From Ruminococcaceae bacterium UBA3903 (GTDB lineage: Bacteria; Bacillota; Clostridia; Oscillospirales; Acutalibacteraceae): a stretch of DNA of 64,000 bases. Position 1 is the stretch's first letter, and each line of letters opens with the position of its first letter. This document shows, piece by piece, positions 4,823-59,949 of the stretch. The stretch covers positions 5,900 through 69,899 of the forward strand of contig DGFJ01000007.1 in the NCBI GenBank assembly GCA_002391625.1, written 5' to 3'. Both the position numbers and the translations under genes were made by a program. The notes below the pieces were generated by a model. The model searched no databases. It had not been told where the DNA came from and saw only the letters and a program-made list of their open reading frames with translations.

Positions 4823-5454
4823 TATAATACACCTAAATATGGATTATGTGATTTTTCATAATCTAACGTAGAGTTATCCCCATGTCCAGGATAAATAGTA
4901 TAGTTTTTAGTTAACTCAGAAATTTTATGCAGGGAGTGTTTCATTTCTGTGTCATTGCCAGTAGGAAAATCTGTACGTCCCATAGAACATTTCATTAACG
5001 TATCCCCTGTAAATATATTGTTATCAACAATATAACAACCGCTACCTTGTGTGTGACCAGGTGTGCTAACATAAGTGATTGAGCTATTGCCAAGTGGTAA
5101 TAGCTCATTGTTCTTTAGCAATATATCTGCATCAATAGGAGCTAAAGGCTGTGTCATTGTAAATTGGGATAGATTTAACTTCTTTTGTGTCAAAAAATCC
5201 TTTTCTTTTTCTCCAATGGCTATCTTAGCGTGGGTTAAAGCATATACCTTTAATACAAATCCAATATGGTCAAAATGCCCATGAGTAAGCAAAATATACT
5301 TTAGATTATTTTCGTGATTATTGGAAAGCTTTTGAAACAGCTCCATTGACTCATAGCCAGGGTCTATTAATGCTTGTTCACCAGTATCAGCATCAGTAAT
5401 CAGGTAACAATTTTCCATATAATCACCAAGAATAAATTTTTCAACCTTAATCAT
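4822..5454 (-). CDS. MBL-fold metallo-hydrolase (glyoxalase II-like)
   Basis: HGHFDH metal-binding motif in a 210-aa protein. It shares a 1-nt TAATG stop/start overlap with hemZ. Confidence 0.85.
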   Translation of the reverse strand: MIKVEKFILGDYMENCYLITDADTGEQALIDPGYESMELFQKLSNNHENNLKYILLTHGHFDHIGFVLKVYALTHAKIAIGEKEKDFLTQKKLNLSQFTMTQPLAPIDADILLKNNELLPLGNSSITYVSTPGHTQGSGCYIVDNNIFTGDTLMKCSMGRTDFPTGNDTEMKHSLHKISELTKNYTIYPGHGDNSTLDYEKSHNPYLGVL

Positions 5455-5909
5455 ACGGGTAACAACTCCTTAGAATTAAAAATCATAGTTACAGGACCGT
5501 CGTTAAGTAGGCTAACCTGCATATCAGCTCCAAAAACTCCCTTTTCTACTTTATGTACGCCATTATCCAGCATACATTGGCAAAAATATTCGTACAATGG
5601 GTTGGCTTTTTCAGGCTGTGCGGCTTTACCAAAATAAGGTCTGCGACCTTTTTTACATTCGCCACACAATGTAAAATTAGATATAACCAATACGTTTCCA
5701 CCAACATCGTCTAGCGACAGGTTCATTTTATCATTTTCATCACAAAAAATACGTAATGTTGCTAATTTAGCAGCCAATACCTCAGCGTCTATTTTTTCAT
5801 CATTATTGTCAACGCCCAATAATATTAAGAACCCCTTATCTATACTGCCAACAATATTATCATCAACAATAACCTTAGCATTTGCTACTCTTTGTATTAC
5901 AGCCTTCAT
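5451..5909 (-). CDS. dtd: D-aminoacyl-tRNA deacylase
   Basis: The MKAVIQRV... N-terminus and the 152-aa length fit Dtd. It lies immediately downstream of relA, as in Bacillus. Confidence 0.9.
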   Translation of the reverse strand: MKAVIQRVANAKVIVDDNIVGSIDKGFLILLGVDNNDEKIDAEVLAAKLATLRIFCDENDKMNLSLDDVGGNVLVISNFTLCGECKKGRRPYFGKAAQPEKANPLYEYFCQCMLDNGVHKVEKGVFGADMQVSLLNDGPVTMIFNSKELLPV

Positions 5910-5929: not shown

Positions 5930-8110
5930 TTACGTTCTGTTAATAGATTCTATACCATTAATAGCAGTCAATCTGTTGATAACGCCCTTTAAATGCTCCA
6001 TGCTGTTTACTGTAATGGTAAAGTGCATAACTGCCATACCATTTTTATTTTCACGAGAATTCATATTATGAATGAATATATGCATAGACGACAGCTGATT
6101 TGTTATATCAGCCAACAGACCTGTTCTATCTGTAGCAGTTATTATCAGCGTAGTTTTGTAGGACTCATTAATTTCTCCTGCCCAATGTGCTGAAACCCAA
6201 CGTGCAGGATCTTCACTGGTACTAATGTCCGATGGAACATTTTTACAGCATTTTTTGTGAATAGAAACGCCAAAGCCACGGGTAATAAATCCAATAATAT
6301 CGTCACCGGGCAATGGATTACAGCATTTTGACAATTTAATTAGCACATCATCAACCCCGTCGATAAGTACGCCACTATTAATTTTGGCTTTTCTAGGTTG
6401 ATTATCCACAATCATATCTGGAGTGATTTCCTTTTCAGGCTGTACATAATGCTTTACATATTCGTCCTTTATGCGAGGCATTAGCTTCCACAGCTGTATT
6501 CCCCCATAGCCTATAGCAGCATACAAGTCATCCATGGTAGTAAAATTTTTCTTCATGACAAGTGCAAAGAAATCTGCTAAATCCTTATCAGTAATTTTAA
6601 TGCTATTTCTGTGAAATTCTCTCTCTACTATACCCTTACCCTCTAAAATATTTTCTTCTCTGCATTCCTTTTTAAACCAAGACCGTATTTTACCTCTGGC
6701 TTCACTTGTTTTGACAATATTCAGCCAATCACGCTTTGGGCCACCACTGTCCTTTGCTGTTAGTATTTCTATTATTTCACCGGTAATTACCTTATGGTCA
6801 ATAGGGGCAATTTTACCATCTACCTTCGCACCAATCATGCTATTACCTACCGCAGAATGTATGGCATAGGCCATATCTATCACCGTTGCTCCCATTGGCA
6901 GGTTAATGACATCACCCTTTGGAGTAAATACAAATACCTCCTCTGGTGCCAGGTCTGTTTTTATATTTTTAATTATATCAGTTTCGTCCTCAAATTGATT
7001 TTCCAGCATCTGTCTAATCCACTGAACTTTTTCCCCCATCTTGTCAGTTTTATTAATACCCAGCTTATATTTCCAATGTGCTGCTATTCCATATTCAGCT
7101 GTATGGTGCATCTCCCAGGTTCGAATTTGCACTTCAAATGGGATACCCTCTTTACCTATAACTGTTGTGTGCAAGGACTGGTACATATTTGGTTTTGGCA
7201 TAGAAATATAGTCTTTGAATCTATTTGGCAATGGCTGAAAAAGGTCATGAACTATACCTAAAATGTTATAGCAATCATTTATTGTATTGACAATAACACG
7301 CACAGCAAAAATATCATATATTTGCTCTATGGTTTTTCCACGCATATATGTTTTCCTATATATTCCGTTTATGCTTTTTACCCTGCCCTCTAAGTAAATA
7401 TCATCTACTGTACCCTTGGCACGATTAACAATTGTATTTTTAATTTCATCTATAAAAATGGTACGCTCGTTTTCAGTAAGCTTTAGTGCTTGTTCGATTT
7501 CTTTATAGGCAACAGGGTCTAGGTACCGTAGCGAAAGGTCCTCCATCTCTTCCTTTACCGCTCTAATACCAAGACGATGTGCTATAGGTGCGAAAACCTC
7601 CATATTTTCTAAGGCTTTATCACGACGTTTTTGTTCACGCATACACTCTATTGTACGCATATTGTGTAATCTGTCAGCCAGCTTAATGATAATAACCCTA
7701 ATGTCATCGGCCATAGCAATAAGCATTTTTCTAATATTTTCAGCCTGTTGTACTTCTCGATTTAAGTATGGTATTTTTTTTAATTTTGTAACACCGTCAA
7801 TAAGATTGGCTATGCTGTCACCAAACTCCTTACGTATTTCATCTATGGATACGTTTGTATCTTCTACAACATCATGTAGCAATGCGGCTACAACAGACTC
7901 TGTATCCATACCTAAATCCACCAGTATGCAGGCAACAGAAGTAGGATGTAAAATATAGGGTACTCCTGACACACGACGTTGGTCACCATGTGCTTCCAAC
8001 GCTAGAGCGTAAGCTTTTTTTATAAGCTCAGTATCAAAATCTCTACCGCTTTTTTCTATCATATTCATCAGTTCATTAAAGTCCTGATAATGTACTATTG
8101 CTTTCCCCAT
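5930..8110 (-). CDS. relA: Bifunctional (p)ppGpp synthetase/hydrolase RelA/SpoT family
   Basis: A 726-aa protein with an HD hydrolase motif (LLHDVVEDT), a synthetase core (YISMPKPNMYQSLHTTV), and C-terminal regions in the positions of the TGS and ACT domains. Confidence 0.95.
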   Translation of the reverse strand: MGKAIVHYQDFNELMNMIEKSGRDFDTELIKKAYALALEAHGDQRRVSGVPYILHPTSVACILVDLGMDTESVVAALLHDVVEDTNVSIDEIRKEFGDSIANLIDGVTKLKKIPYLNREVQQAENIRKMLIAMADDIRVIIIKLADRLHNMRTIECMREQKRRDKALENMEVFAPIAHRLGIRAVKEEMEDLSLRYLDPVAYKEIEQALKLTENERTIFIDEIKNTIVNRAKGTVDDIYLEGRVKSINGIYRKTYMRGKTIEQIYDIFAVRVIVNTINDCYNILGIVHDLFQPLPNRFKDYISMPKPNMYQSLHTTVIGKEGIPFEVQIRTWEMHHTAEYGIAAHWKYKLGINKTDKMGEKVQWIRQMLENQFEDETDIIKNIKTDLAPEEVFVFTPKGDVINLPMGATVIDMAYAIHSAVGNSMIGAKVDGKIAPIDHKVITGEIIEILTAKDSGGPKRDWLNIVKTSEARGKIRSWFKKECREENILEGKGIVEREFHRNSIKITDKDLADFFALVMKKNFTTMDDLYAAIGYGGIQLWKLMPRIKDEYVKHYVQPEKEITPDMIVDNQPRKAKINSGVLIDGVDDVLIKLSKCCNPLPGDDIIGFITRGFGVSIHKKCCKNVPSDISTSEDPARWVSAHWAGEINESYKTTLIITATDRTGLLADITNQLSSMHIFIHNMNSRENKNGMAVMHFTITVNSMEHLKGVINRLTAINGIESINRT

Positions 8111-8141
8111 AAACTACAACCCCTTCTATTTAATTAAAAAA

Positions 8142-10181
8142 TCATTTTACCAATTTTTTAATTATCTCCGCACTTTGCAAATCCACCTTACCCTCAAACG
8201 GTAATAGCTTTATTAACATTTTACCCGAATTTTCCTTTAATTCTATTAAGGACAGCTCACTCATGGCATATAAAATAGTCATTAGCTTTCCATATGTAAG
8301 CTTTGTATTATTAAGCCTAGTGTATAAAACGCTGGCAGAGTAATGCCACCCGTCATGCTGCCGTAAAAAACGAAAAACTGAGGCAAATTCATCTCTAATT
8401 GGTAATAGGCTTTGACGCTGTATATCATTAATATCCTCGCCACGAACCAAAGCTTCAAAATCCCATAGGCTCTCTATGATTTTATCCATTTTCTGAGAAG
8501 TAAACTTTATATCTCTAAGTATAATAGATAGCGTGGTCTTTCCGTTGTAAACATTGACATCTATAGTAACGGCTAAATCCAACACATCACCCATAATATA
8601 CGGAAAGTCATCCTTTGCTGTACCAAACATCAAGGCTTCAATAGTGGTATCACCTCGTGTAAACACCAGTCGCAAATGTTTACCGCCACCTATAGGAATA
8701 ATACTTTTAAGCGTCATATTATATAAACCAAACAGCGGTGTGGGATTGCCAGCACCAAATGGTTCTAGTGCGGTTAATTGCTGTGCCATATCAACAGATA
8801 AAGCAGAAGGATTTAGCTTACAATCTATTTCTAAAACTGGCAGCGGCATTTTTCCTAAGCCTTTAGCATATTGGTTAATTCTAATAGTAAATTCATTTAT
8901 GTTTTCTTTATCAAGGCTAAGTCCCGCTGCCATAGGATGCCCACCAAAATGTGACAATAGATCAGAACAGCTAGTAATAGCATCTATCAAAGAAAAACCC
9001 TTTATACTTCTGCCCGAACCTTTAGCACCGTTTTCATCCCAAGTAATAACTATAACAGGCTTACCGTATATTTCCTTTAATCTGGATGCCACTATTCCTA
9101 TTACACCTGCATGCCAATTTTCACCGCTTATTACTATTATTCGTTGTGCCTTAATAGTGGGATTATCCTGTATATAGCTTTTTATCTTTTCTAAAATTTC
9201 TCGTTCAATGTCTTGTCGCAGGCGGTTATCTTCACCTAATTCAGCCGCAATTTCCTTAGCAACAGCAGCATCCTCTGTCAGTAAAAGCTTAACAGATTTT
9301 TCTGACAATCCAAGTCTGCCACAGGCGTTTATACGAGGAACTAAAGTAAAAGACAAGCGTCCAGCAGAAATTTTGTTACCCTTTAAGCCTGCATCATCTA
9401 ACAGTTCCTTTATCCCTAATCTTTCAAGGTTATTTATTGACTGTAATCCATATTTAACAATTATTCTGTTTTCTCCTGTTAAAGATACTATATCACCTAT
9501 AGTACCCATTGCGGTTATATCAGAATATTTTTTTAGAAGTAAATCTACATCAAGATTCTCATCCTCTAGTGCCATTAGTAGCTTAAATACTACGCCAACA
9601 CCAGATAATTCCTTAAATGGATAATCACAATCTGGTCTGTGTGGGTTAACAACTGCTACAGCATTAGGCAGTACAGCAGGTGTTCTGTGATGGTCTGTTA
9701 TAACAGTATCTATACCTAGTTCATTGGCATAATCTATTTCCAAAATGGCTGAAACACCGTTGTCAACAGTTATAATCAGTTTCACTTCATATTCATTAAT
9801 TTTGTCAATAGCACAAGTATTTAGTCCATAACCCTCGCTGTCACGTGACGGTATATAGTACATTACATCAGCACCAACACCATCTAAATATGAGTATAGC
9901 AAGGCTGTAGATGTTACACCATCAGCATCATAATCACCATAAATACAGATTTTTTCACCATCATTTAAAGCTTTATTTATCCTGTTCACAGCTTTTTCCA
10001 TATCAGTCATAAGGTATGGGTCAATAAGCTCATTGTCATCAGATAAAAATTGATATATAGACTCTTCCGATGTTATACCACGGATATCCAACAGCATAGC
10101 TATAATTGGCGGAACATCAAAGGAAGCCGATATTTCCTTTGCTTTGTCCTTATTAAGTTTTAAGACACTCCAATTTTTCAT
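8142..10181 (-). CDS. recJ: Single-stranded-DNA-specific exonuclease RecJ
   Basis: DHH motifs (YGDYDADG, ITDHH) and the DHHA1 motif GGHPMAAG. Confidence 0.9.
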   Translation of the reverse strand: MKNWSVLKLNKDKAKEISASFDVPPIIAMLLDIRGITSEESIYQFLSDDNELIDPYLMTDMEKAVNRINKALNDGEKICIYGDYDADGVTSTALLYSYLDGVGADVMYYIPSRDSEGYGLNTCAIDKINEYEVKLIITVDNGVSAILEIDYANELGIDTVITDHHRTPAVLPNAVAVVNPHRPDCDYPFKELSGVGVVFKLLMALEDENLDVDLLLKKYSDITAMGTIGDIVSLTGENRIIVKYGLQSINNLERLGIKELLDDAGLKGNKISAGRLSFTLVPRINACGRLGLSEKSVKLLLTEDAAVAKEIAAELGEDNRLRQDIEREILEKIKSYIQDNPTIKAQRIIVISGENWHAGVIGIVASRLKEIYGKPVIVITWDENGAKGSGRSIKGFSLIDAITSCSDLLSHFGGHPMAAGLSLDKENINEFTIRINQYAKGLGKMPLPVLEIDCKLNPSALSVDMAQQLTALEPFGAGNPTPLFGLYNMTLKSIIPIGGGKHLRLVFTRGDTTIEALMFGTAKDDFPYIMGDVLDLAVTIDVNVYNGKTTLSIILRDIKFTSQKMDKIIESLWDFEALVRGEDINDIQRQSLLPIRDEFASVFRFLRQHDGWHYSASVLYTRLNNTKLTYGKLMTILYAMSELSLIELKENSGKMLIKLLPFEGKVDLQSAEIIKKLVK

Positions 10182-10204: not shown

Positions 10205-11872
10205 TTATTTATCTGCCGATAATAGCATTTCCTCGGCGTGTTTCATAGTTAATTCTGTTATAGATACTCCACCAATTATGCGTGCCAGCTCTTTAACACG
10301 CTGCCCATGGTTAAGGAATTGTACCTGTGTATAGGTTCTGCCATCAGCCACATTTTTCTTTATAAAATAGTGGCTGTCAGCCAACGCCGCTATTTGTGCT
10401 TGATGAGTTACACATATTACCTGTTTGCTTTTAGATAAGCTTTTTAGCTTTAAACCAACCTTTTCTGTAGCGCTACCGCTTATACCTGTGTCAACCTCGT
10501 CAAAGATAAGTGTATCAATGATATCGTTGTTTGACAACACATTTTTTATTGCCAGCATCATTCTGGACAGCTCACCGCCTGATGCTATTTTTGAAACCGG
10601 TTTTGGTGGTTCACCAGGGTTGGTTGAAATTAGAAATTCTATTTTATCACAGCCAACACCGTTTAACGGGCATCGTTCCTGTAAAACCTGTAAATTGACA
10701 TTTGGCATATCTAGGTAAACCATTTCTTTTTTTACTTTTTCTGTAAACTGTTGGCAGATGGCTTGTCTTTTTCTGGACAGTGCCTTTGCCTGTGCTTTGG
10801 CGGATTCTACAATTTTAGCATATTCTGCATTTAGCCTATCCAAATTAGCCTCATATTGTTCCAAGGCTTCCAATTCATCCTGACACTTTGCTAAATAATC
10901 TAACATTTCCTCCGCTGTGCTGCCATACTTCCGTGAAAGTCTATATATAGTGTCTAAACGCTGTTCTATTTCATCTATTCCAAATGAATCCATAGGAGAA
11001 TCGTCAATTAGAGAAGCTATTTCCTGTGAACAATCCTGCAATTCATAGAACACGTTATTAATACGCTCATTTATATTGTTAACTTCTGATATATAGTCGC
11101 TTATTTCCGAAAGACTGTCCACTGTATCCTCTAGCATAGAAATTACACCACTGGTATCTTCATCACCATTTAAGCTACTATGTGCAAGCTCTAAGGCATT
11201 GGATATTTTTTCTTTGTTAACATAAACATTCTTTTCTTCCGTTAGCTGTTCATATTCCCCTGCCTTTAAATCTGCTTCCTCCAGCTCATCTATTTGGTAT
11301 TTTAGCAAATCAATTTTACGCTCTCTGTCAGAGTCGTTGGAAACAGCATTATCCAGCTTATGTCTGCATTCCTTTAGGCTGTTGAATGTATCCTTATATT
11401 CATCTAACCCATTTTTTAGCTGACCTAGGCTGTCAATATAAGTTATATGCTTTTCTGGTGACATCAGCTGATAGCTTTCATGCTGACCATGAATATTAAT
11501 AAGCTCTGATGCTATTTCTTTTAGGACACTAAGCGTTACTGGTCTTCCGTTAATACGACAATTATTTTTGCCGTTTATGTTAAGCTGGCGTTGCAATATT
11601 AGCTCATCATCATCTAGATCATAGCCAAGCTCAGACAGCTTATCAATAACAGAAGCTGTTACATCTGTAAATGTACCGCTAACAAAGGCTTTTGTTTCAC
11701 CTGTCCTAATAATATCCTTGGACATTCGGTGTCCCAGCAAAGCGTTGATAGAATCTATCACAATAGATTTACCTGCACCTGTTTCACCCGTAAGAACGTT
11801 AAATCCACCGGTAAAATCAATATTTGTTTTTTCTATAACTGCTATGTTTTCAATATACAAAGAATTCAGCAT
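10205..11872 (-). CDS. recN: DNA repair protein RecN
   Basis: Walker A GETGAGKS, a long central coiled coil, the SGGELSR signature, and the Walker B motif LIFDEVD. Confidence 0.95.
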   Translation of the reverse strand: MLNSLYIENIAVIEKTNIDFTGGFNVLTGETGAGKSIVIDSINALLGHRMSKDIIRTGETKAFVSGTFTDVTASVIDKLSELGYDLDDDELILQRQLNINGKNNCRINGRPVTLSVLKEIASELINIHGQHESYQLMSPEKHITYIDSLGQLKNGLDEYKDTFNSLKECRHKLDNAVSNDSDRERKIDLLKYQIDELEEADLKAGEYEQLTEEKNVYVNKEKISNALELAHSSLNGDEDTSGVISMLEDTVDSLSEISDYISEVNNINERINNVFYELQDCSQEIASLIDDSPMDSFGIDEIEQRLDTIYRLSRKYGSTAEEMLDYLAKCQDELEALEQYEANLDRLNAEYAKIVESAKAQAKALSRKRQAICQQFTEKVKKEMVYLDMPNVNLQVLQERCPLNGVGCDKIEFLISTNPGEPPKPVSKIASGGELSRMMLAIKNVLSNNDIIDTLIFDEVDTGISGSATEKVGLKLKSLSKSKQVICVTHQAQIAALADSHYFIKKNVADGRTYTQVQFLNHGQRVKELARIIGGVSITELTMKHAEEMLLSADK

Positions 11873-53157: not shown

Positions 53158-54357
53158 TTATTTATCTACATCTAATATATTAGTTGTTTCGCTTACAATA
53201 TAAACCCTTGGTATGTTTTTCTTTTTAGCATATACCACAGCATCTATCTGTGTTTCAAAGGTACTAACCTCGCAGCGACTGCCACTCATGGATAGCTGGC
53301 GTGCCTGATTAATAGCGTCCATTTCAAAGCCGTCCTCACCATGAACTAATATATCTATTGACATATCATTTTTTACAACAGATTTTTTCAGCAGCATATT
53401 TGCCAGCTCATGAACATTAATACCAAAACCAGCAGCTGGCATAGGGTTTTGAAACTCTGACAACAGCTCATCGTATCTACCACCAACCAGTACAGCATCA
53501 CCGCTGCCCTCAACATATCCACTAAATATAATACCACTGTAATAGTCATTACGCTGAACAAGTCCCAAATCAACAATAAGCTTATCACCCATAAATATTT
53601 GTGATAACGCCTCATACATTTCCTTTAAATAGTACAAAGCCGCTTCTGCTTCTGTTCCCTTAAACAATGGGTACGCTTTTTCAAATACTTCCTCACCACC
53701 GAATAAACGTGGCAGCTTACGCAGGGCAGTTACAGTATCGGTTTGCTCTAGCTCATCTAATATGCTATTAAGTGCAGAATAGTTTTTAGATTCTATTGAT
53801 AAACGAACCTCTTCACGCTGATAATCACTAATAGGCAGCTTATTAACCAACGCTCTAAAGAAAATTGCGTGTCCCAGCTCAATTCTAAAATCTGGTACAA
53901 CCTTCTGCATTGCTTCTATAGCAGCGGTTATCAGCTCTAGGTCTGCTCGCTTACCGCTTACGCCCAAAAGCTCCATACCAGCCTGTCTAACCTCATTACT
54001 TCTGCCGGCAAGGCTTCTATTATTTCTATATAATATCTGATTGTATGACAGTCTAAGTGGCAGTGGCTCTGACTGCAATCTAGTAGCTACCATTCTTGCA
54101 ATTGGCAACGTGGAGTCAGGACGCAGAACCATTAGCCTCCCCTTTTTGTCTGTAAGGATAAACATATCCTCTTGGCTAATGCCAGAATGCTTTAGAGCAA
54201 ATGTATCAAAAAATTCCATACTAGGGGTGAACACTTGATTATATCCCTTTGAAGCAAATACATCATCCATAATTTTACTAACCTTGTTCACAGCAGTACA
54301 TTCTTCAAATAAAAAATCCTTTGTGCCTTCTGGGGTTATTTTGTAATATTTTCTCAT
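53158..54357 (-). CDS. hisZ: ATP phosphoribosyltransferase regulatory subunit (HisS paralogue)
   Basis: A 399-aa class II aaRS-like core without an anticodon-binding domain. It is the first gene of the his operon. Confidence 0.85.
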   Translation of the reverse strand: MRKYYKITPEGTKDFLFEECTAVNKVSKIMDDVFASKGYNQVFTPSMEFFDTFALKHSGISQEDMFILTDKKGRLMVLRPDSTLPIARMVATRLQSEPLPLRLSYNQILYRNNRSLAGRSNEVRQAGMELLGVSGKRADLELITAAIEAMQKVVPDFRIELGHAIFFRALVNKLPISDYQREEVRLSIESKNYSALNSILDELEQTDTVTALRKLPRLFGGEEVFEKAYPLFKGTEAEAALYYLKEMYEALSQIFMGDKLIVDLGLVQRNDYYSGIIFSGYVEGSGDAVLVGGRYDELLSEFQNPMPAAGFGINVHELANMLLKKSVVKNDMSIDILVHGEDGFEMDAINQARQLSMSGSRCEVSTFETQIDAVVYAKKKNIPRVYIVSETTNILDVDK

Positions 54358-54438: not shown

Positions 54439-54454
54439 TACTGAATATGTCCCT

Positions 54455-54490
54455 AAACAAAAATGCAGGGAGCGGTTGCCCACACCCTGC
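54455..54490 (-). terminator. Rho-independent terminator of the MBOAT-DHHW-FkbH-ACP operon
   Basis: On the minus strand, GCAGGG-(14 nt)-CCCTGC followed by AUUUUUGUUU, 14 nt after the ACP stop codon. Confidence 0.65.
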
Positions 54491-54503
54491 ATCTAATTTA
54501 AAA

Positions 54504-54746
54504 TTATCTGATTCTGGACGCAATGATGTCAACCATTTCACCTACGTTTTTCATTGATGAAATCTCACCCATTTTAAACTTAATCTTGAAAGCCCTTTCT
54601 ACCGCACCTATTAAGGTGATATGCTCTAGGCTGTCCCAATCATCTATATCGTCAGCCGTTGTGTTAGGTGTTATTCTGATAGAATCATCATCAAATACAT
54701 CACAAAATACACTGTTTAGTTTACCGTAAATTTGTTTTTTATCCAT
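54504..54746 (-). CDS. Acyl carrier protein (stand-alone, Dlt/FkbH-associated type)
   Basis: An 80-aa acidic four-helix-type protein with the phosphopantetheine attachment context DDWDSLEH. It lies 7 nt downstream of the FkbH-like gene. Confidence 0.8.
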   Translation of the reverse strand: MDKKQIYGKLNSVFCDVFDDDSIRITPNTTADDIDDWDSLEHITLIGAVERAFKIKFKMGEISSMKNVGEMVDIIASRIR

Positions 54747-54753
54747 AATTATT

Positions 54754-56559
54754 TTACTCCTTATTGTTTTCAGTTAAATCGTTGCCTACAACCGTAATAA
54801 CATTATTTTTATTTGAATAACTATCTACTGCCATTTCCCATATAGTGTTTCCTTCGCTGTCCTCATTTATTTTTTCAAATCCAAAGGTTTTATACAGCTC
54901 ACGAACCATATTATTTTTGGCTGTAGGATAGTAATATCCCTTAATTGTTTTTACACCCTGCTCTATACATTTTTGTACCAATATATCTAACATTGCCAAT
55001 TCCATATCTCTTTTTAAAACACGACAGCTCATTAACCACAAGTCTATGTTCAATACATCGCCGTCTTTTTTTCCTATTACAACAGATACAACGCCGTTAT
55101 CACCAAATTTGTCTATAAGCTTACCATATAAACGTATATATTGGTCGCTTTCAAATACTTCTTCCATTTCTGCGACGGTATAACGTTTAGTAGTAACATT
55201 AAACTGGTTGCTCTTATTAGAAAGCTGGGTGATACGTTGAATATATACTGGTAAAAAGTCATCAATAGTAGCCTTCATATTCATGCTAAGTAAGTAATCC
55301 TCGTAGTTACCAAAGGTAGCTTGCTGTGCTGCCCTTTCTACATTTGCTTTATACATTTCGTTACGTTTTAAATCGTCCTCACTAAATGTAGTAACTTCAA
55401 AAAAGCCGTTTCTGTCCAATGTGGTAATATAGTTTTCTACAGTGTCCATTACAGGTGCAGACACACCATTTAACTGTGCCTTTACTATCTCTCGTTCGGC
55501 TGGATTGTCGTCCACGAATACAATAGACTCTGGTAGAATATTTAGCTCTGCTGCTGTGTTGGCGATATTAATATCTTTATTTTCCCAGTTGGCTTTTATA
55601 ATGATAAAATCATCAGGTTTTAATACACCTTCAGGATGATTTAAGCCATCAACAGCGTTTTGATGGTCATTTTTTGAACAGACTGTTAGCATTATACCTA
55701 AATCTTTTTGGCTTTTGATAAACTGTTGAAATTCGTAGTAGCTTTGAGAAACACCTGTTTCCTGACCGATTTCAATGTTATCTACTCCATCATCGCCAAC
55801 TACTCCACCCCATAGTGTGTTGTCCAAATCCAATGCCAAAGCCTTTTTATTTTTGCCAAAAATGGATTTTATAATATTGGCAATGTTAAATGCAAGCTCA
55901 GGGATAGCATCAATACACATAGCATATTTATACATATTCCAAAACAGCGGGTTTGACCATTCCTTTAAGCCGTAGCTGGCAGAAATGAAATTAATATCAT
56001 TAATATAAAAATTATCTGTTTTTTGACTATAACAATAGAGCATTGTGTTTAGTCTAGTGATAAAGTTACTGCGTCCTCTGTAATCGCTGCAGTCCTTATT
56101 TCCCATTAATCTATAGAAAGGCAATTCAAAATTATTTTGAATTATAGGGCATTTAAATTTTTCTGAAACAGATTGCCACATTTGCTTAAAATTTTCAAAA
56201 GTAGAATTTAACAGGCTGTCAGTGTCCTCCTTTGAAAATCTTGGCGTTGGATAGCTTGCAATGTTTCTGTTTGTAGTATGAATAAAAACTATGTCTGGCT
56301 GAAAATCTAACAGCTCCTGTGGTGGAAACATAGCGTCCTGCCAATACTGTGCATATTCTGACTGGTAAAACGTTGGCTCTATCCCTGCATTTAGCAGGAA
56401 TAGCTCCATAATATTAATAATTTCATTAATGGTTGAACCACCTAAAACTGCTATTTTTTTCTGCAGTCGCGTGCTGCCATCAGCAAGAAGTGCTTTTTTT
56501 ATAGATTTCTTCTTTTTAGAAACATAATCAGAATCAAAAGGATATTCTAACTGGTACAT
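54754..56559 (-). CDS. FkbH-like HAD-IIIC family enzyme with a C-terminal GNAT-like domain
   Basis: The HAD motif I LALDLDNTLWGG, followed by VCSKN and DDNP motifs. The 601-aa three-domain layout is typical of FkbH-like proteins. Confidence 0.75.
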   Translation of the reverse strand: MYQLEYPFDSDYVSKKKKSIKKALLADGSTRLQKKIAVLGGSTINEIINIMELFLLNAGIEPTFYQSEYAQYWQDAMFPPQELLDFQPDIVFIHTTNRNIASYPTPRFSKEDTDSLLNSTFENFKQMWQSVSEKFKCPIIQNNFELPFYRLMGNKDCSDYRGRSNFITRLNTMLYCYSQKTDNFYINDINFISASYGLKEWSNPLFWNMYKYAMCIDAIPELAFNIANIIKSIFGKNKKALALDLDNTLWGGVVGDDGVDNIEIGQETGVSQSYYEFQQFIKSQKDLGIMLTVCSKNDHQNAVDGLNHPEGVLKPDDFIIIKANWENKDINIANTAAELNILPESIVFVDDNPAEREIVKAQLNGVSAPVMDTVENYITTLDRNGFFEVTTFSEDDLKRNEMYKANVERAAQQATFGNYEDYLLSMNMKATIDDFLPVYIQRITQLSNKSNQFNVTTKRYTVAEMEEVFESDQYIRLYGKLIDKFGDNGVVSVVIGKKDGDVLNIDLWLMSCRVLKRDMELAMLDILVQKCIEQGVKTIKGYYYPTAKNNMVRELYKTFGFEKINEDSEGNTIWEMAVDSYSNKNNVITVVGNDLTENNKE

Positions 56560-56578
56560 AATTACACCTCGTAAAATT

Positions 56579-58189
56579 TTATTGAGCTGTCACTTTAGAT
56601 GAAGCGGATGCTGTTACAGCTTCATCAACAATTTTTTCACTACTATTTTGTGAAATTAGGTTTGCTAGATTATCAGCGTTTTCACCAACAACTGAATAAG
56701 AGCTACAGGTAAATAGTAAATCTGTAATGCCTAAATCCTTAACAAAGTTAACAAGATTAATTTGTGAATAACGCATATCCATAACGTAAATTTCAGAGAA
56801 GGAGCTGGTGTAGAACGGTATTTCAGCATTGCCGTAGCTGTCCTTTACCACGCACAGCTTCCTACCGTTGGTGACATCAGTTTTAACCTTAACTATGCTG
56901 TCATCGCCACCCATAAATGTTAAGTAGGCGTTGTCCGTGTCTGTGTTAACAAGCAGCTCACCTTCATCTTGGAAATTAAACGATTGATCATAATAGTAGG
57001 TTTTATATTTATTTTTAGGCACGTAATAGGTAAATGTTTCAGGGTCATTTTTAATATTGACATCACCTGTAAACGCATACATAGTTCCTACAAAGCCTTC
57101 AATATTCTGTGGTGTATAGGTGCTAATATCAGCAAAAGGCACACCCGCTGTTGATGCAAACAGCTGCGAAGCATAGTATGCACCAAGCGGCTGCCAATGG
57201 TGATCTGTTCGGCAATAAATTGGCTCTGTTGTATGCTGTTTTAAAACATCACAAGGATTAATTGAAGCTATACCAGAATTCATCTTGCCGGCAATTTTAT
57301 TAAAGCAGTCAGATTGGCTGGTTGTATAATCAGAATATTGCAATGGAGTGTAAAATTCACAAGCCAACGGATTAGGCATAGAATAAACCTTTACGCTGGA
57401 GCCTAGCTTTGCGTGAATATCATTCAGCGCCTCAATGTATGAGGTACCTGAACCTCCGCCAAAAAGCTCTAAGGCTCGCCAATGACCATCCTGATTAACA
57501 GAAATTAATCCATTATTGTAGTTAGCATCTGCATTTTCCTGAGTGTAATCCTTGTCAGTAGCAGCTTCTGTAGGCTGTTGAGCATTACTGGATGTTACAT
57601 CAGTCGGTGAAGCCACGCTAGAATCCTCAGATTTACTGCTGTTTACAACCTGTATTTTACCAGTAACCTTAACATTATTACTAGATGGAAAGCCTAATAA
57701 GCCCAGCATAGAGTTACTGGCATTTTTTAGGTCATCTCGAAAAGGCACAGTATCATCATAACATTTAGCAATAGAACTAGTAAATGAACCAGAAAAATAG
57801 CTTTCAAAGGAAAAGCTAGGCATTGTCGCCAAGGTTCTGTTTTCTGTTTCAGATACTGTAGGGTGAGGCAAAACCAAAATCAGAAAAGCTATAATAAAGA
57901 ATATTGGCACAATAACGAGCAAGCTTATTATTGAAAAGCCATTTTCTAGGGCAGATTTGCTTAACCCATCAATACCTCGTTTTTTGTTATCATGAGGTCT
58001 TCTGCTTGATGAGGTTCTATTGGTTGAAGAACGTCTGTTGCTTGTTTTCGATGATGAATAAATATTTCTATTAGAATAAGAGCGGTCACGAGTATTGCGT
58101 TGTTCCTCTGTATTATCACGTGTACCACTGGGCTTATCTTCAAAATATTCTAACGAATATGGCTTATCTTCATACTTGTTTTCGTCCAT
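56579..58189 (-). CDS. DHHW-family protein (AlgJ/AlgX/PatB-like extracytoplasmic acyltransferase candidate), single TM anchor
   Basis: The RTDHHW motif. An ~85-aa Ser/Arg/Asn-rich N-terminal tail precedes one TM span (FSIISLLVIVPIFFIIAFLILVL) and a large external domain. Confidence 0.75.
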   Translation of the reverse strand: MDENKYEDKPYSLEYFEDKPSGTRDNTEEQRNTRDRSYSNRNIYSSSKTSNRRSSTNRTSSSRRPHDNKKRGIDGLSKSALENGFSIISLLVIVPIFFIIAFLILVLPHPTVSETENRTLATMPSFSFESYFSGSFTSSIAKCYDDTVPFRDDLKNASNSMLGLLGFPSSNNVKVTGKIQVVNSSKSEDSSVASPTDVTSSNAQQPTEAATDKDYTQENADANYNNGLISVNQDGHWRALELFGGGSGTSYIEALNDIHAKLGSSVKVYSMPNPLACEFYTPLQYSDYTTSQSDCFNKIAGKMNSGIASINPCDVLKQHTTEPIYCRTDHHWQPLGAYYASQLFASTAGVPFADISTYTPQNIEGFVGTMYAFTGDVNIKNDPETFTYYVPKNKYKTYYYDQSFNFQDEGELLVNTDTDNAYLTFMGGDDSIVKVKTDVTNGRKLCVVKDSYGNAEIPFYTSSFSEIYVMDMRYSQINLVNFVKDLGITDLLFTCSSYSVVGENADNLANLISQNSSEKIVDEAVTASASSKVTAQ

Positions 58190-58232
58190 GGCAATTCTCC
58201 TTGTGAGTTAACATAAAATGAGTTTCATTTTA

Positions 58233-59651
58233 TTAGAATCTAAAATACAGGAATGGATTGTTTGTTGCATTAACCAATAAAATAGTACAAATTACCAATA
58301 ATCCACAGCAGGAAACAGTTGACAAAATTTGTCCTGTTGCAAACCTTTTGTTTGTACTGTTGAAAAAATCTTTAAGCTTTGGCAAGACAGGCAAGCAACA
58401 CATCACAGAAGCTGCGAATAAGAAAAAGTTGTTCAAAAAGCTTGTCCATGTTATAGTGTCAAACATAGCGCTGCCGTTTGTAATCATGCTAATGCCAGAA
58501 ATATTAAGGAAAAACTGTCCCAGCTGGCCAAAGTCTTCAAAGCAGAAAATGCCAAAGCCAATAATAATTACAGCCTTGCTATATAAATGTGAAGCCCAAA
58601 CTGGCCATTTTTTCATACGCTTTTTGCCTAGCTTTAGTTCTAGGAATATAAATGCACCAAAATATAATCCCCAAATAATATAGTTCCATGAAGCACCATG
58701 CCACATACCTGTGCAGAACCATACTAAAAACAGTCCCAAATATTTACGAGGTCTTCCCAAAATAGGAACATACAACAAATAATCACGGAAGAATGAACCT
58801 AAGGATATGTGCCATCTTTGCCAGAACTCTGAAATATTTTTGCTTATGAAGGGGTGTCTAAAGTTTTCGTCAAAGTGAAAACCAAATATTCTGCCCATAC
58901 CAATTGCCATATCAGAATAACCGCTAAAATCAAAATAAACATACATTGAATATACAATAACAGTATACCATGTACCACCAACAGACAGATTAGAAATATC
59001 ATTTCCAATAAAAAAGGTGTTAACGATAGCATACAAATTATTAGCCAAGATAACCTTTTTTGCCAAACCAACCATCAACCTAAAGGCGCCCTCTTTAATG
59101 TCTGTGGCTGTAATTTTTCTATTATCAATTTCATCCTCAATGACACTGTACCTAACGATAGGTCCAGCAACCAGCTGTGGAAACAAGGAAACATACATCA
59201 AAAACTTTGGATAAGCATGCTGTACCTTTACTGTACCCCAATAACAATCCATAATATATGAAATAATCTGGAATGTGTAGAAGCTAATACCGATTGGTAA
59301 TGCGATATTTGGCAATGGGATAGATGCACCTGTAAAATAATTAATATTTCCTACAATAAAGTCACTATATTTGAATACTATCAGCATACCTAGGTTAAAT
59401 ATTAATGCCAACGCTACAGCCAATTTTGCACCCGTCCGTTCATAGTGCTTTTCAATAAGTAACCCAATAAAATAGTTAACTATCGTACTAAATAATAAGA
59501 TAAAAATACATAACGGCTCACCCCAAGCGTAAAAGATTAGGGAAAAAACTATTAGAACAATGTTTCTATTTTTAGATTTTTTTGTAACAAAATACGCAAT
59601 CAAGCAAAGTGGTAAAAACACATACAAAAAAAATAAATCTGAAAATACCAT
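58233..59651 (-). CDS. MBOAT-family membrane O-acyltransferase (AlgI/DltB/PatA-like)
   Basis: FYAWGEP near the N-terminus, FWQRWHISLGSFFRDYLLY, and a conserved His in TGMWHGASWNY. An AAAGGAG RBS precedes the start. Confidence 0.9.
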   Translation of the reverse strand: MVFSDLFFLYVFLPLCLIAYFVTKKSKNRNIVLIVFSLIFYAWGEPLCIFILLFSTIVNYFIGLLIEKHYERTGAKLAVALALIFNLGMLIVFKYSDFIVGNINYFTGASIPLPNIALPIGISFYTFQIISYIMDCYWGTVKVQHAYPKFLMYVSLFPQLVAGPIVRYSVIEDEIDNRKITATDIKEGAFRLMVGLAKKVILANNLYAIVNTFFIGNDISNLSVGGTWYTVIVYSMYVYFDFSGYSDMAIGMGRIFGFHFDENFRHPFISKNISEFWQRWHISLGSFFRDYLLYVPILGRPRKYLGLFLVWFCTGMWHGASWNYIIWGLYFGAFIFLELKLGKKRMKKWPVWASHLYSKAVIIIGFGIFCFEDFGQLGQFFLNISGISMITNGSAMFDTITWTSFLNNFFLFAASVMCCLPVLPKLKDFFNSTNKRFATGQILSTVSCCGLLVICTILLVNATNNPFLYFRF

Positions 59652-59764
59652 TGTGCAGCTCCTTTTCTTTAAAAGTTTGCTAATATTATAGCAATAATAT
59701 GTTTATATTCACATCTACAAACGGCTTAGCAAACATAATTTAGTAAATTATTCATAATTTTTCC

Positions 59765-59793
59765 ATATTACCTTTTATTAGCCAGTGTGTAAA
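59765..59793 (-). promoter_or_regulatory. Sigma-A-type promoter candidate of the MBOAT operon
   Basis: On the minus strand, TTTACA (59793-59788) - 17 nt - TAATAT (59770-59765). This leaves a leader of about 105 nt before the AAAGGAG RBS. Confidence 0.45.
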
Positions 59794-59907
59794 CACAATT
59801 TGTCTAATTATATCACTTTTTCCGTTGATAGTAAAGATTTCCCATTATGAATTTTATGTAAAATATTATGATTTTCAGCGGATATATTTTTAAGTGTTTA
59901 TTCATAT

Positions 59908-59949
59908 CAAAAAAATCACAGTAGACCAGTTATTATACTGACCTACTGT
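59908..59949 (-). terminator. Rho-independent terminator after the AI-2E transporter gene
   Basis: On the minus strand, ACAGTAGgtCAG...CTGgtCTACTGT (7+3 bp with an internal mismatch) followed by GAUUUUUUUG. Confidence 0.65.

Follow-up and report, generated by a model that had tools for sequence, protein, structure and literature searches.

The locus described here raises the question of why a bacterium should pack into a single operon a membrane acyltransferase with its outer partner, of the kind that decorates envelope polymers, together with a loading enzyme and a small carrier protein of the kind that forms glyceryl-acyl carrier protein. It lies in a stretch of 64,000 nucleotides (the window) of Ruminococcaceae bacterium UBA3903 (GenBank GCA_002391625.1, contig DGFJ01000007.1, positions 5,900 to 69,899), where four genes encode a membrane-bound O-acyltransferase (MBOAT), a protein of the DHHW family, an FkbH-type enzyme (the loader) and an acyl carrier protein (ACP). 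In the Dlt pathway a cytoplasmic loader charges a carrier protein, the acyl group then passes by way of an MBOAT across the membrane to the tyrosine of an FxYxxF motif, and the last transfer falls to an anchored SGNH-like enzyme, while MBOAT/SGNH pathways other than Dlt were described in 2025, by groups working on the Dlt and PatAB mechanisms, as devoid of a carrier because they use acyl-CoA (PMC12148441). We lean, by a small measure, towards the view that the operon encodes a carrier-protein-dependent MBOAT-SGNH pathway that attaches a glyceroyl (2,3-dihydroxypropanoyl) group derived from glycolysis, as an ester, to an extracytoplasmic glycopolymer of the envelope; dependence on the carrier protein, taken by itself, we regard as likely.

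The domain calls on which this view is built, namely MBOAT, DHHW, FkbH/HAD-IIIC and carrier protein, had been made in a preliminary description of the locus and hold in Pfam and NCBIfam profile searches, and every peptide motif that it named in the four proteins was found. The open reading frame (ORF) coordinates likewise match exactly the four minus-strand genes reported there, which are spaced, in the order MBOAT, DHHW, FkbH and ACP, by 43, 19 and 7 nt (Table 1). A Shine-Dalgarno sequence (AAGGAG or GAGGTG) precedes each of them, that of the MBOAT gene being an AAGGAG at ~59661-59666 and that of the ACP gene falling within the 3' end of the loader gene. On account of this spacing, of the ribosome-binding site before each gene and of the flanking terminators, the four genes are predicted to be one transcription unit.

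The loader scores 262.5 bits on the NCBIfam model TIGR01686 (cutoff 146.65), matches the HAD-IIIC model as well and reaches 42 bits on Pfam FkbH_N, and its N-terminal and HAD parts align with Bacteroides fragilis BF1531 (PDB 3SLR) at 1.6e-52. In an alignment, here called A1, of ZmaN (zwittermicin), the FkbH of a Streptomyces tetronate cassette, three alphaproteobacterial proteins and distant representatives, all the invariant columns are kept in the loader (D244, D246 and T248 of the DxDxT motif, S295-K296-N297, K328, D350-D351, S511-C512-R513 and R517), and these correspond to the HAD phosphatase motifs and a conserved cysteine. Cys512 is a candidate for the site of the acyl-S-enzyme intermediate through which the mechanism of OzmB runs (PMC9057759). 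An AlphaFold (AF2) model of the loader has a mean pLDDT of 73, with 70-94 in the C-terminal domain, and Foldseek matches this domain to the GNAT proteins Ard1 and RimI with TM scores of 0.6-0.7 and a probability of 1.0, so that the region previously termed GNAT-like does adopt a GNAT fold in the model. The GNAT fold binds pantetheine in other enzymes, and a pantetheine-binding transfer domain fits the modelled structure.

The likeness to the glyceryl-ACP-forming enzymes FkbH, OzmB and ZmaN thus extends to the HAD-IIIC domain followed by a cysteine-bearing C-terminal domain, to the invariant residues and to an adjacent ACP of the WDS type, and the three-domain architecture is that of the Streptomyces tetronate-cassette enzyme. 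The difference lies downstream: unlike in the polyketide and tetronate pathways served by FkbH, no dehydrogenase, O-methyltransferase, ketosynthase or polyketide synthase follows, and the predicted consumer of the acyl group is a membrane acyltransferase instead of an assembly line. The ACP itself matches Pfam PF00550 (PP-binding) at 24.9 bits and has the serine of the DSL motif; in NCBIfam it finds weak, sub-threshold AcpP-like matches and none to DltC. Its WDS motif recurs in 41 of 41 and 55 of 57 FkbH-adjacent ACPs (96 of 98) and in the ACP of the Streptomyces tetronate cassette.

The MBOAT reaches 76.3 bits on Pfam PF03062 (gathering score 27) and 160.5 bits on the DltB equivalog model TIGR04091, below the curated cutoff of 375. 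It aligns with DltB (PDB 6BUG) at 5e-21 over a span that includes the two conserved histidine motifs, RWHISL and WHGASW facing RWHMSL and WHGITW of DltB. Two extra C-terminal helices (aa 405-426 and 437-460) lie ahead of the terminal FLYFRF, and N[PV]FLY[FW]RF forms the C-terminal end of 52 of 52 MBOAT orthologues, which are 61-69% identical to the window protein over 56 related loci. The FxYxxF acyl-shuttle motif is fused to MBOATs of the PatA and AlgI type, while in Dlt it resides on the separate microprotein DltX (PMC12148441). As far as sequence comparison can tell, the MBOAT is therefore PatA1/AlgI-like, homologous to DltB without being one.

The outer partner scores 131 bits on Pfam PF14286 (cutoff 25), has a single transmembrane helix (aa 87-105) and matches the uncharacterised Eubacterium siraeum protein EUBSIR_00411 (PDB 4NZK) at 6e-88. 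It also aligns with PatB1 of Bacillus cereus (3e-9), with the serine of the KDS(Y/F)xN block, the DHHW block and the DxRY block in register; roles for the residues of these blocks have been described (PMC9487903). Neither Pfam nor NCBIfam returned a match of this protein to the DltD family, and it is predicted to be a membrane-anchored SGNH-like transferase of the DHHW family. It has a cytoplasmic tail of 85 aa (aa 1-85) of low complexity, rich in serine, arginine and asparagine, and contains a Ser/Thr-rich linker at ~aa 175-215. Its gene is the least conserved of the four (40-64% identity among the relatives), and in some relatives a second DHHW paralogue stands beside the module, in loci L012 and L015 upstream of the MBOAT gene and divergent, in L027 as a tandem copy.

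The linkage of the four genes was followed in species-representative genomes, in which a scan turned up 405 relatives of the loader; of these, the 80 with the best matches (70-80% identity) form the close set and belong to Acutalibacteraceae and 'Ruminococcus' metagenome-assembled genomes (MAGs), Pseudoruminococcus massiliensis and Hominenteromicrobium mulieris. Where at least 3.3 kb of upstream sequence was available (56 loci), 53 have both an MBOAT and a DHHW gene, arranged colinearly with FkbH and sharing its strand, and where at least 400 nt followed the loader (72 loci), an ACP gene comes next in 70. The genes that flank the operon in the window occur in none of the 80 close loci. Colinearity of the four genes amid differing flanks indicates that the module travels as a four-gene unit. 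The FkbH-ACP and MBOAT-DHHW pairs are thus co-conserved; an independent distribution of the two pairs had been set beforehand as the outcome that would count against a joint pathway. The AMP-binding signature PS00455 is absent from the 64-kb window and from the 80 close loci and occurs in one of the 80 environmental loci introduced below, and the conserved module has no acyltransferase besides the MBOAT and DHHW proteins. With neither an AMP-binding enzyme nor another acyltransferase in it, the module leaves only the MBOAT as a candidate to consume the acyl-ACP.

More distant contexts came from a plasmid collection and a metagenome scan; a profile search for distant homologues that used alignment A1 led back to the rumen and gut clade already found and added no diversity. 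On pSymB of Sinorhizobium meliloti (L082:5433-10467), an MBOAT ending in FLYQGF, a 409-aa anchored protein, an ACP and an FkbH-like protein are clustered, the MBOAT being ~30% identical to that of the window. The 409-aa protein (L082:7005-8234, CP140883.1 U8C34_13475), encoded between the MBOAT and ACP genes, has no Pfam match; with an N-terminal transmembrane helix, a GGS block and, towards the C-terminus, a DPGH block, it is probably the anchored SGNH-like partner, and its annotation as a 'TonB-dependent receptor' is probably wrong. The ACP of this cluster was considered as the published SMb20651 and the identification was rejected, as SMb20651 is co-transcribed with an acyl-CoA-ligase-like gene and belongs to a different system. 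Plasmid pTM1 of Tistrella carries an anchored 340-aa protein, an MBOAT ending in FIYAGF, an ACP, a SAM methyltransferase and an FkbH-like protein.

With the alphaproteobacterial type as its seed, the metagenome scan yielded 80 loci from soil, peat and lakes with GC contents from 35% to 71%. An ACP adjoins FkbH in 56 of these 80. Flanks of 4 kb or more on each side were available for 22 loci, and in 17 of them an MBOAT lies no more than 4 kb away. The environmental MBOATs are usually flanked by an anchored protein, either of the AlgX/GDSL type or Pfam-less with a G-x-S...H pattern. The SGNH-like label for the Pfam-less partners is drawn from their transmembrane anchor and the invariant G-x-S and histidine of a DxxH-like block. 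An attempt to identify the fold of these partners (families c3 and c6, S. meliloti and Tistrella) as SGNH or DltD-like did not succeed: hhalign against the DHHW family was negative; c3 matches the AlgX/GDSL-type family c7 with a probability of 69% only, and its best PDB match, to a GDSL-like acylhydrolase, has E = 0.67 only. Linkage that is kept despite a shuffled gene order is a classical sign of functional coupling. The FkbH-linked MBOATs do not form one clade, which suggests that the donor pair was combined with different MBOAT/SGNH lineages. Clusters (50% identity) that match the FkbH-like family at E < 1e-30 number 4,824, and among the loci examined MBOAT linkage accounts for a substantial share.

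Five environmental loci provide what appears to be the strongest support for a joint pathway. Their MBOATs are short (405-412 aa), score 185-207 bits against the DltB model and are devoid of the C-terminal motif. All five have, a few nucleotides ahead of the MBOAT start, the end of an ORF of 41-43 aa that encodes one transmembrane helix and closes with xVYQGF (Table 1). The genes are ordered FkbH, ACP, anchored SGNH-like protein (G-x-S...H), DltX-like ORF and short DltB-like MBOAT, and no DltA is present: every Dlt role thus seems to be filled, with FkbH in the place of DltA.

In the pathway that we propose, the FkbH-type enzyme would take 1,3-bisphosphoglycerate as its substrate and form an acyl-S-Cys512 intermediate, the HAD domain taking off the phosphate, and its GNAT-fold domain would pass the glyceryl unit to the phosphopantetheine arm on Ser39 of the ACP. 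The glyceryl-ACP would dock on the cytoplasmic face of the MBOAT and the acyl group would cross the membrane onto Tyr469 of FLYFRF, from which the DHHW transferase would take it onto its catalytic Ser451 and then transfer it to a wall-polymer hydroxyl. We infer the substrate, the acyl group, the delivery from ACP to MBOAT and the target; the assignment of the group as glyceroyl follows from the conservation of the FkbH catalytic set and finds backing in the accessory genes of variant loci listed below. Acyl-CoA and acyl-ACP alike carry the acyl group on phosphopantetheine, a shared carrier that makes a switch of MBOAT donor mechanistically plausible, and the co-operonic, co-conserved ACP and loader argue against an acyl-CoA donor for this MBOAT. 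The acceptor would most plausibly be a phosphate-containing, teichoic-acid-like polymer or a secondary wall polysaccharide. A phosphate-containing, teichoic-acid- or capsule-like target is suggested by 14 close loci in which AT3, Stealth and GT2+CDP-glycerol glycerophosphotransferase-like (TagF-like) genes, the last encoding fusions of ~900 aa, lie directly upstream on the same strand (L014, L020, L030, L035, L036, L040, L046, L051, L054, L055, L059, L063, L069 and L075). The window has no such gene, and the wall-polymer target, taken from relatives, is the weakest step of the scheme.

The alternative that survives best, to which we give a low probability, holds that two separate activities serve one polymer: the MBOAT and DHHW proteins would carry out O-acetylation from acetyl-CoA, like PatA1/PatB1, the FkbH-ACP pair would feed a cytoplasmic glycan-assembly step encoded elsewhere, and the two would be neighbours only through the shared polymer. 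Several observations weigh on this side and against a single pathway. The closest homologues of the MBOAT in the plasmid collection, at 40-46% identity, are found in plain MBOAT+DHHW pairs that have neither FkbH nor ACP, in Monoglobus pectinilyticus (46%), Clostridium estertheticum (45%), Bacillus thuringiensis (45%) and Pusillibacter faecalis (40%), and these pairs are presumably acetyl-CoA users; the fused shuttle motif is, moreover, the architecture of the acetyl-CoA-dependent PatA (PMC12148441). Conversely, FkbH and ACP also occur apart from an MBOAT. In the capsule locus of a B. fragilis-type contig (L171:647-5017), BF1531 stands directly behind UpxZ and a Fer4/FrhB/hexapeptide protein, with an 80-aa ACP next in line; in the Bacteroidales locus L172, FkbH, a VOC protein and an ACP lie among AT3 genes without an MBOAT; and for the FkbH-ACP pair of Subdoligranulum locus L081, tblastn finds no MBOAT or DHHW gene, and as the large neighbouring ORFs have no Pfam match this locus is uninformative by itself. 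Even within the close set, a second GT2+TagF-like gene replaces MBOAT and DHHW upstream of an orthologous FkbH-ACP pair (71-72% identical) in L047 (1525-10053), L060 (1333-10063), L050 and L074, where either the MBOAT and DHHW genes lie elsewhere in the genome or a cytoplasmic enzyme consumes the acyl-ACP. Since such pairs without an MBOAT exist, FkbH and ACP can feed acceptors other than an MBOAT. Set against this, no other transferase able to use acyl-ACP belongs to the conserved module, which moves as a unit through unrelated genomic contexts; the linkage to MBOATs arose with at least three MBOAT/SGNH lineages and in several gene orders; and in the variant with DltX and a short DltB-like MBOAT a carrier is present, DltA is absent and FkbH is the sole possible loader. 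The plain pairs (L173-L176), whose DHHW partners of 365-398 aa are shorter than the 536-aa protein of the window, frequently have DUF4358 and GDSL esterase genes beside them and lend themselves to a comparison aimed at residues of donor specificity.

It is similarly improbable, in our estimate, that the same pathway transfers a group other than plain glycerate, whether from another phosphorylated acyl donor or after alteration of the ACP-bound unit, by enzymes encoded elsewhere, to a lactyl, O-methylglyceroyl or hydroxymalonyl group. Here it counts against the glyceroyl assignment that the substrate specificity of the loader is assumed from an identity of ~27-29% to characterised loaders. In many distant loci, moreover, accessory genes are interleaved with FkbH, ACP and MBOAT: SAM methyltransferases (L095, L150, L092, L156, L084:5568-6503 and L083:8315-9283), a MaoC dehydratase+SDR fusion (L114:9918-11366; eight loci) and VOC/glyoxalase proteins (L082:4588-5055, L083:9280-9747 and L172:9729-10133). 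These fit the tailoring of a hydroxylated ACP-bound unit and might turn glyceryl-ACP into lactyl, O-methylglyceroyl or epimerised units, yielding a family of related esters; in the natural-product literature, FkbH domains of aeruginosin-type synthetases supply glycerate that is then methylated. No tailoring gene, however, is present in the window operon or in the 53 related loci, and the loader keeps every residue that is invariant in A1, ZmaN and the tetronate-cassette FkbH included. Finally, a membrane lipid, a lipoprotein or a secreted small molecule as the acceptor is very improbable, for while the window contains no polymer-synthesis genes near the operon and an FkbH-ACP unit of Paroceanicella adjoins the lipid-modification genes mprF and acvB, the characterised DHHW, AlgX and DltD relatives act on glycopolymers (PMC9487903) and in many relatives the module has TagF-like, Stealth, GT2 and AT3 genes as its neighbours.

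The relation of the proposed pathway to the known systems can be drawn as follows. With Dlt it shares the four roles of loader, carrier, MBOAT and outer transferase, and an MBOAT homologous to DltB. It differs in that the loader is an FkbH/HAD-IIIC enzyme instead of the adenylating DltA, with no AMP-binding signature; that the MBOAT stays below the DltB cutoff and bears its shuttle motif fused on two extra helices instead of on a separate DltX; that the outer enzyme is DHHW and not DltD; that the ACP has no DltC match; and that the predicted acyl group is glyceroyl and not D-alanyl. The DltA, DltB-equivalog and DltD/DltX features of that system being missing, the operon appears to work like Dlt without being a member of it. 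The preliminary description, which saw a Dlt-like operon with a different loader, is supported by the co-conservation of the four roles, the lack of DltA and the intact FkbH catalytic set; the Dlt-like character does not extend to the MBOAT, which is PatA1/AlgI-like, and FkbH with ACP also occurs without an MBOAT. By their sequence affiliations the four proteins belong to the MBOAT superfamily, the DHHW family and the FkbH family, with the fused-shuttle architecture of the PatA type. An MBOAT with a fused FxYxxF and a DHHW-family partner is common to PatA1/PatB1 (O-acetylation of the secondary wall polysaccharide of B. cereus), PatA/PatB, AlgI/AlgJ/AlgX and the clostridial CcsH/CcsI, but those systems have neither carrier nor loader and PatA uses acetyl-CoA (PMC12148441), whereas the window operon packs both an ACP and an FkbH loader. 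An FkbH-like enzyme with a small ACP is found in glycan loci also in the flagellar glycosylation region of Campylobacter jejuni (cj1302) and at B. fragilis BF1531; the latter differs in that no MBOAT or SGNH partner is seen in the 6.4-kb contig. In such loci the acyl unit presumably goes to cytoplasmic enzymes. To our knowledge, the functions of cj1302 and BF1531 are uncharacterised. A search of the openly searchable literature (subscription-only sources being outside its scope) returned no paper combining MBOAT and HAD-IIIC, and for FkbH with MBOAT only two unrelated natural-product papers, on aeruginosin and suomilide; as far as found there, the four-gene combination, which recurs in many bacteria, has no earlier description.

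As to the signals around the operon, its downstream hairpin and U-run, reported earlier, proved real, since none of 200 shuffled sequences folds equally well. At the other end, a strong terminator of the upstream AI-2E permease gene, absent from the preliminary description, would insulate the operon. The intergenic region upstream of the MBOAT gene measures 321 nt. The promoter candidate TTTACA-17-TAATAT first proposed is present at 59793-59765 with 9 of 12 consensus matches, but a better one (TTTACT-17-TATAAT with an extended TG, 10 of 12 matches) lies 40 nt further upstream at 59835-59807; promoter-like sites are not clearly enriched over shuffled sequence (35 against 24.3 +/- 6.1), and the promoter assignment, made by consensus matches, is weak. 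Rfam returned nothing at the gathering score over the whole 64-kb window, including the region upstream of the his operon, and hence no riboswitch or leader RNA with the operon. The source genome is an anaerobic-digester MAG, in which the module is located between polC and AI-2E genes and the his operon; the latter (hisZ at 54357) has its own promoter, TTGACA-17-TG-TATTAT at 54438-54410, directly past the terminator of the module.

Table 1. Positions of genes, motifs and signals of the four-gene operon (numbering of the window), with protein blocks and related micro-ORFs (numbering of the respective protein or locus given in the feature column)
Feature	Position	Strand	Remarks	Basis
MBOAT gene	58233..59651	-	472 aa	ORF list
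DHHW gene	56579..58189	-	536 aa	ORF list
FkbH-type loader gene	54754..56559	-	601 aa	ORF list
ACP gene	54504..54746	-	80 aa	ORF list
WHGASW motif (aa 317-322)	58686..58703	-	conserved MBOAT His	aligned to DltB GFWHGITW
C-terminal FLYFRF (aa 467-472)	58236..58253	-	FxYxxF acyl-shuttle motif	sequence
HAD motif I DLDNT	55816..55830	-	D244, D246, T248	invariant in A1
SCRV motif with Cys512	55018..55029	-	predicted acyl-S-enzyme site	S511, C512, R513, R517 invariant in A1
ACP WDSL motif	54627..54638	-	Ser39, predicted phosphopantetheine site	motif comparison
Intrinsic terminator, operon end	54454..54494	-	dG -26.6 kcal/mol, z = -4.87; then UUUUUGUUU	
Intrinsic terminator of upstream AI-2E permease gene	59918..59949	-	13-bp stem, 6-nt loop, T-run; operon 5' boundary	
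Promoter and leader region	59652..59917	-		consensus scan and sequence
DHHW protein, ENRTLA	aa 116-121			
DHHW protein, DHHW	aa 329-332			
DHHW protein, KDSYGN	aa 449-454			
DHHW protein, DMRY	aa 471-474			
Loader, FkbH_N	aa 36-231			
Loader, HAD-IIIC phosphatase	~aa 239-360			
Loader, GNAT-fold	~aa 425-590			
DltX-like micro-ORF, locus L140	~9183-9314			
DltX-like micro-ORF, locus L149	~10893-11018			
DltX-like micro-ORF, locus L150	~8076-8207			
DltX-like micro-ORF, locus L153	~5348-5479			
DltX-like micro-ORF, locus L159	~7724-7855			

The operon and its relatives suggest that the 2025 statement on carrier-less MBOAT/SGNH pathways outside Dlt is incomplete. We see about an even chance that they represent a second widespread class of carrier-protein-dependent MBOAT-SGNH pathways, in which FkbH diverts a glycolytic intermediate to an ACP and a glyceroyl group (lactyl or O-methylglyceroyl in variants with tailoring genes) is exported onto envelope polymers. 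The orphan structures 4NZK, of the DHHW partner, and 3SLR, of the FkbH-like N-terminal half, probably belong to such FkbH/ACP-linked glycan modification systems and would thereby gain a functional context, and experimental handles are offered by the cultured carriers Pseudoruminococcus massiliensis, Hominenteromicrobium mulieris and S. meliloti with its pSymB. If the pathway operates as proposed, it would be a natural experiment on the choice of donor by MBOATs, in which the bacterial enzymes switch between phosphopantetheine donors borne by CoA and by a protein. It would also add to bacteria abundant in gut, rumen and soil a new surface ester, which would be likely to affect charge, hydration, recognition by phages and lectins, and immune sensing, and would tie central glycolysis directly to the chemistry of the envelope.

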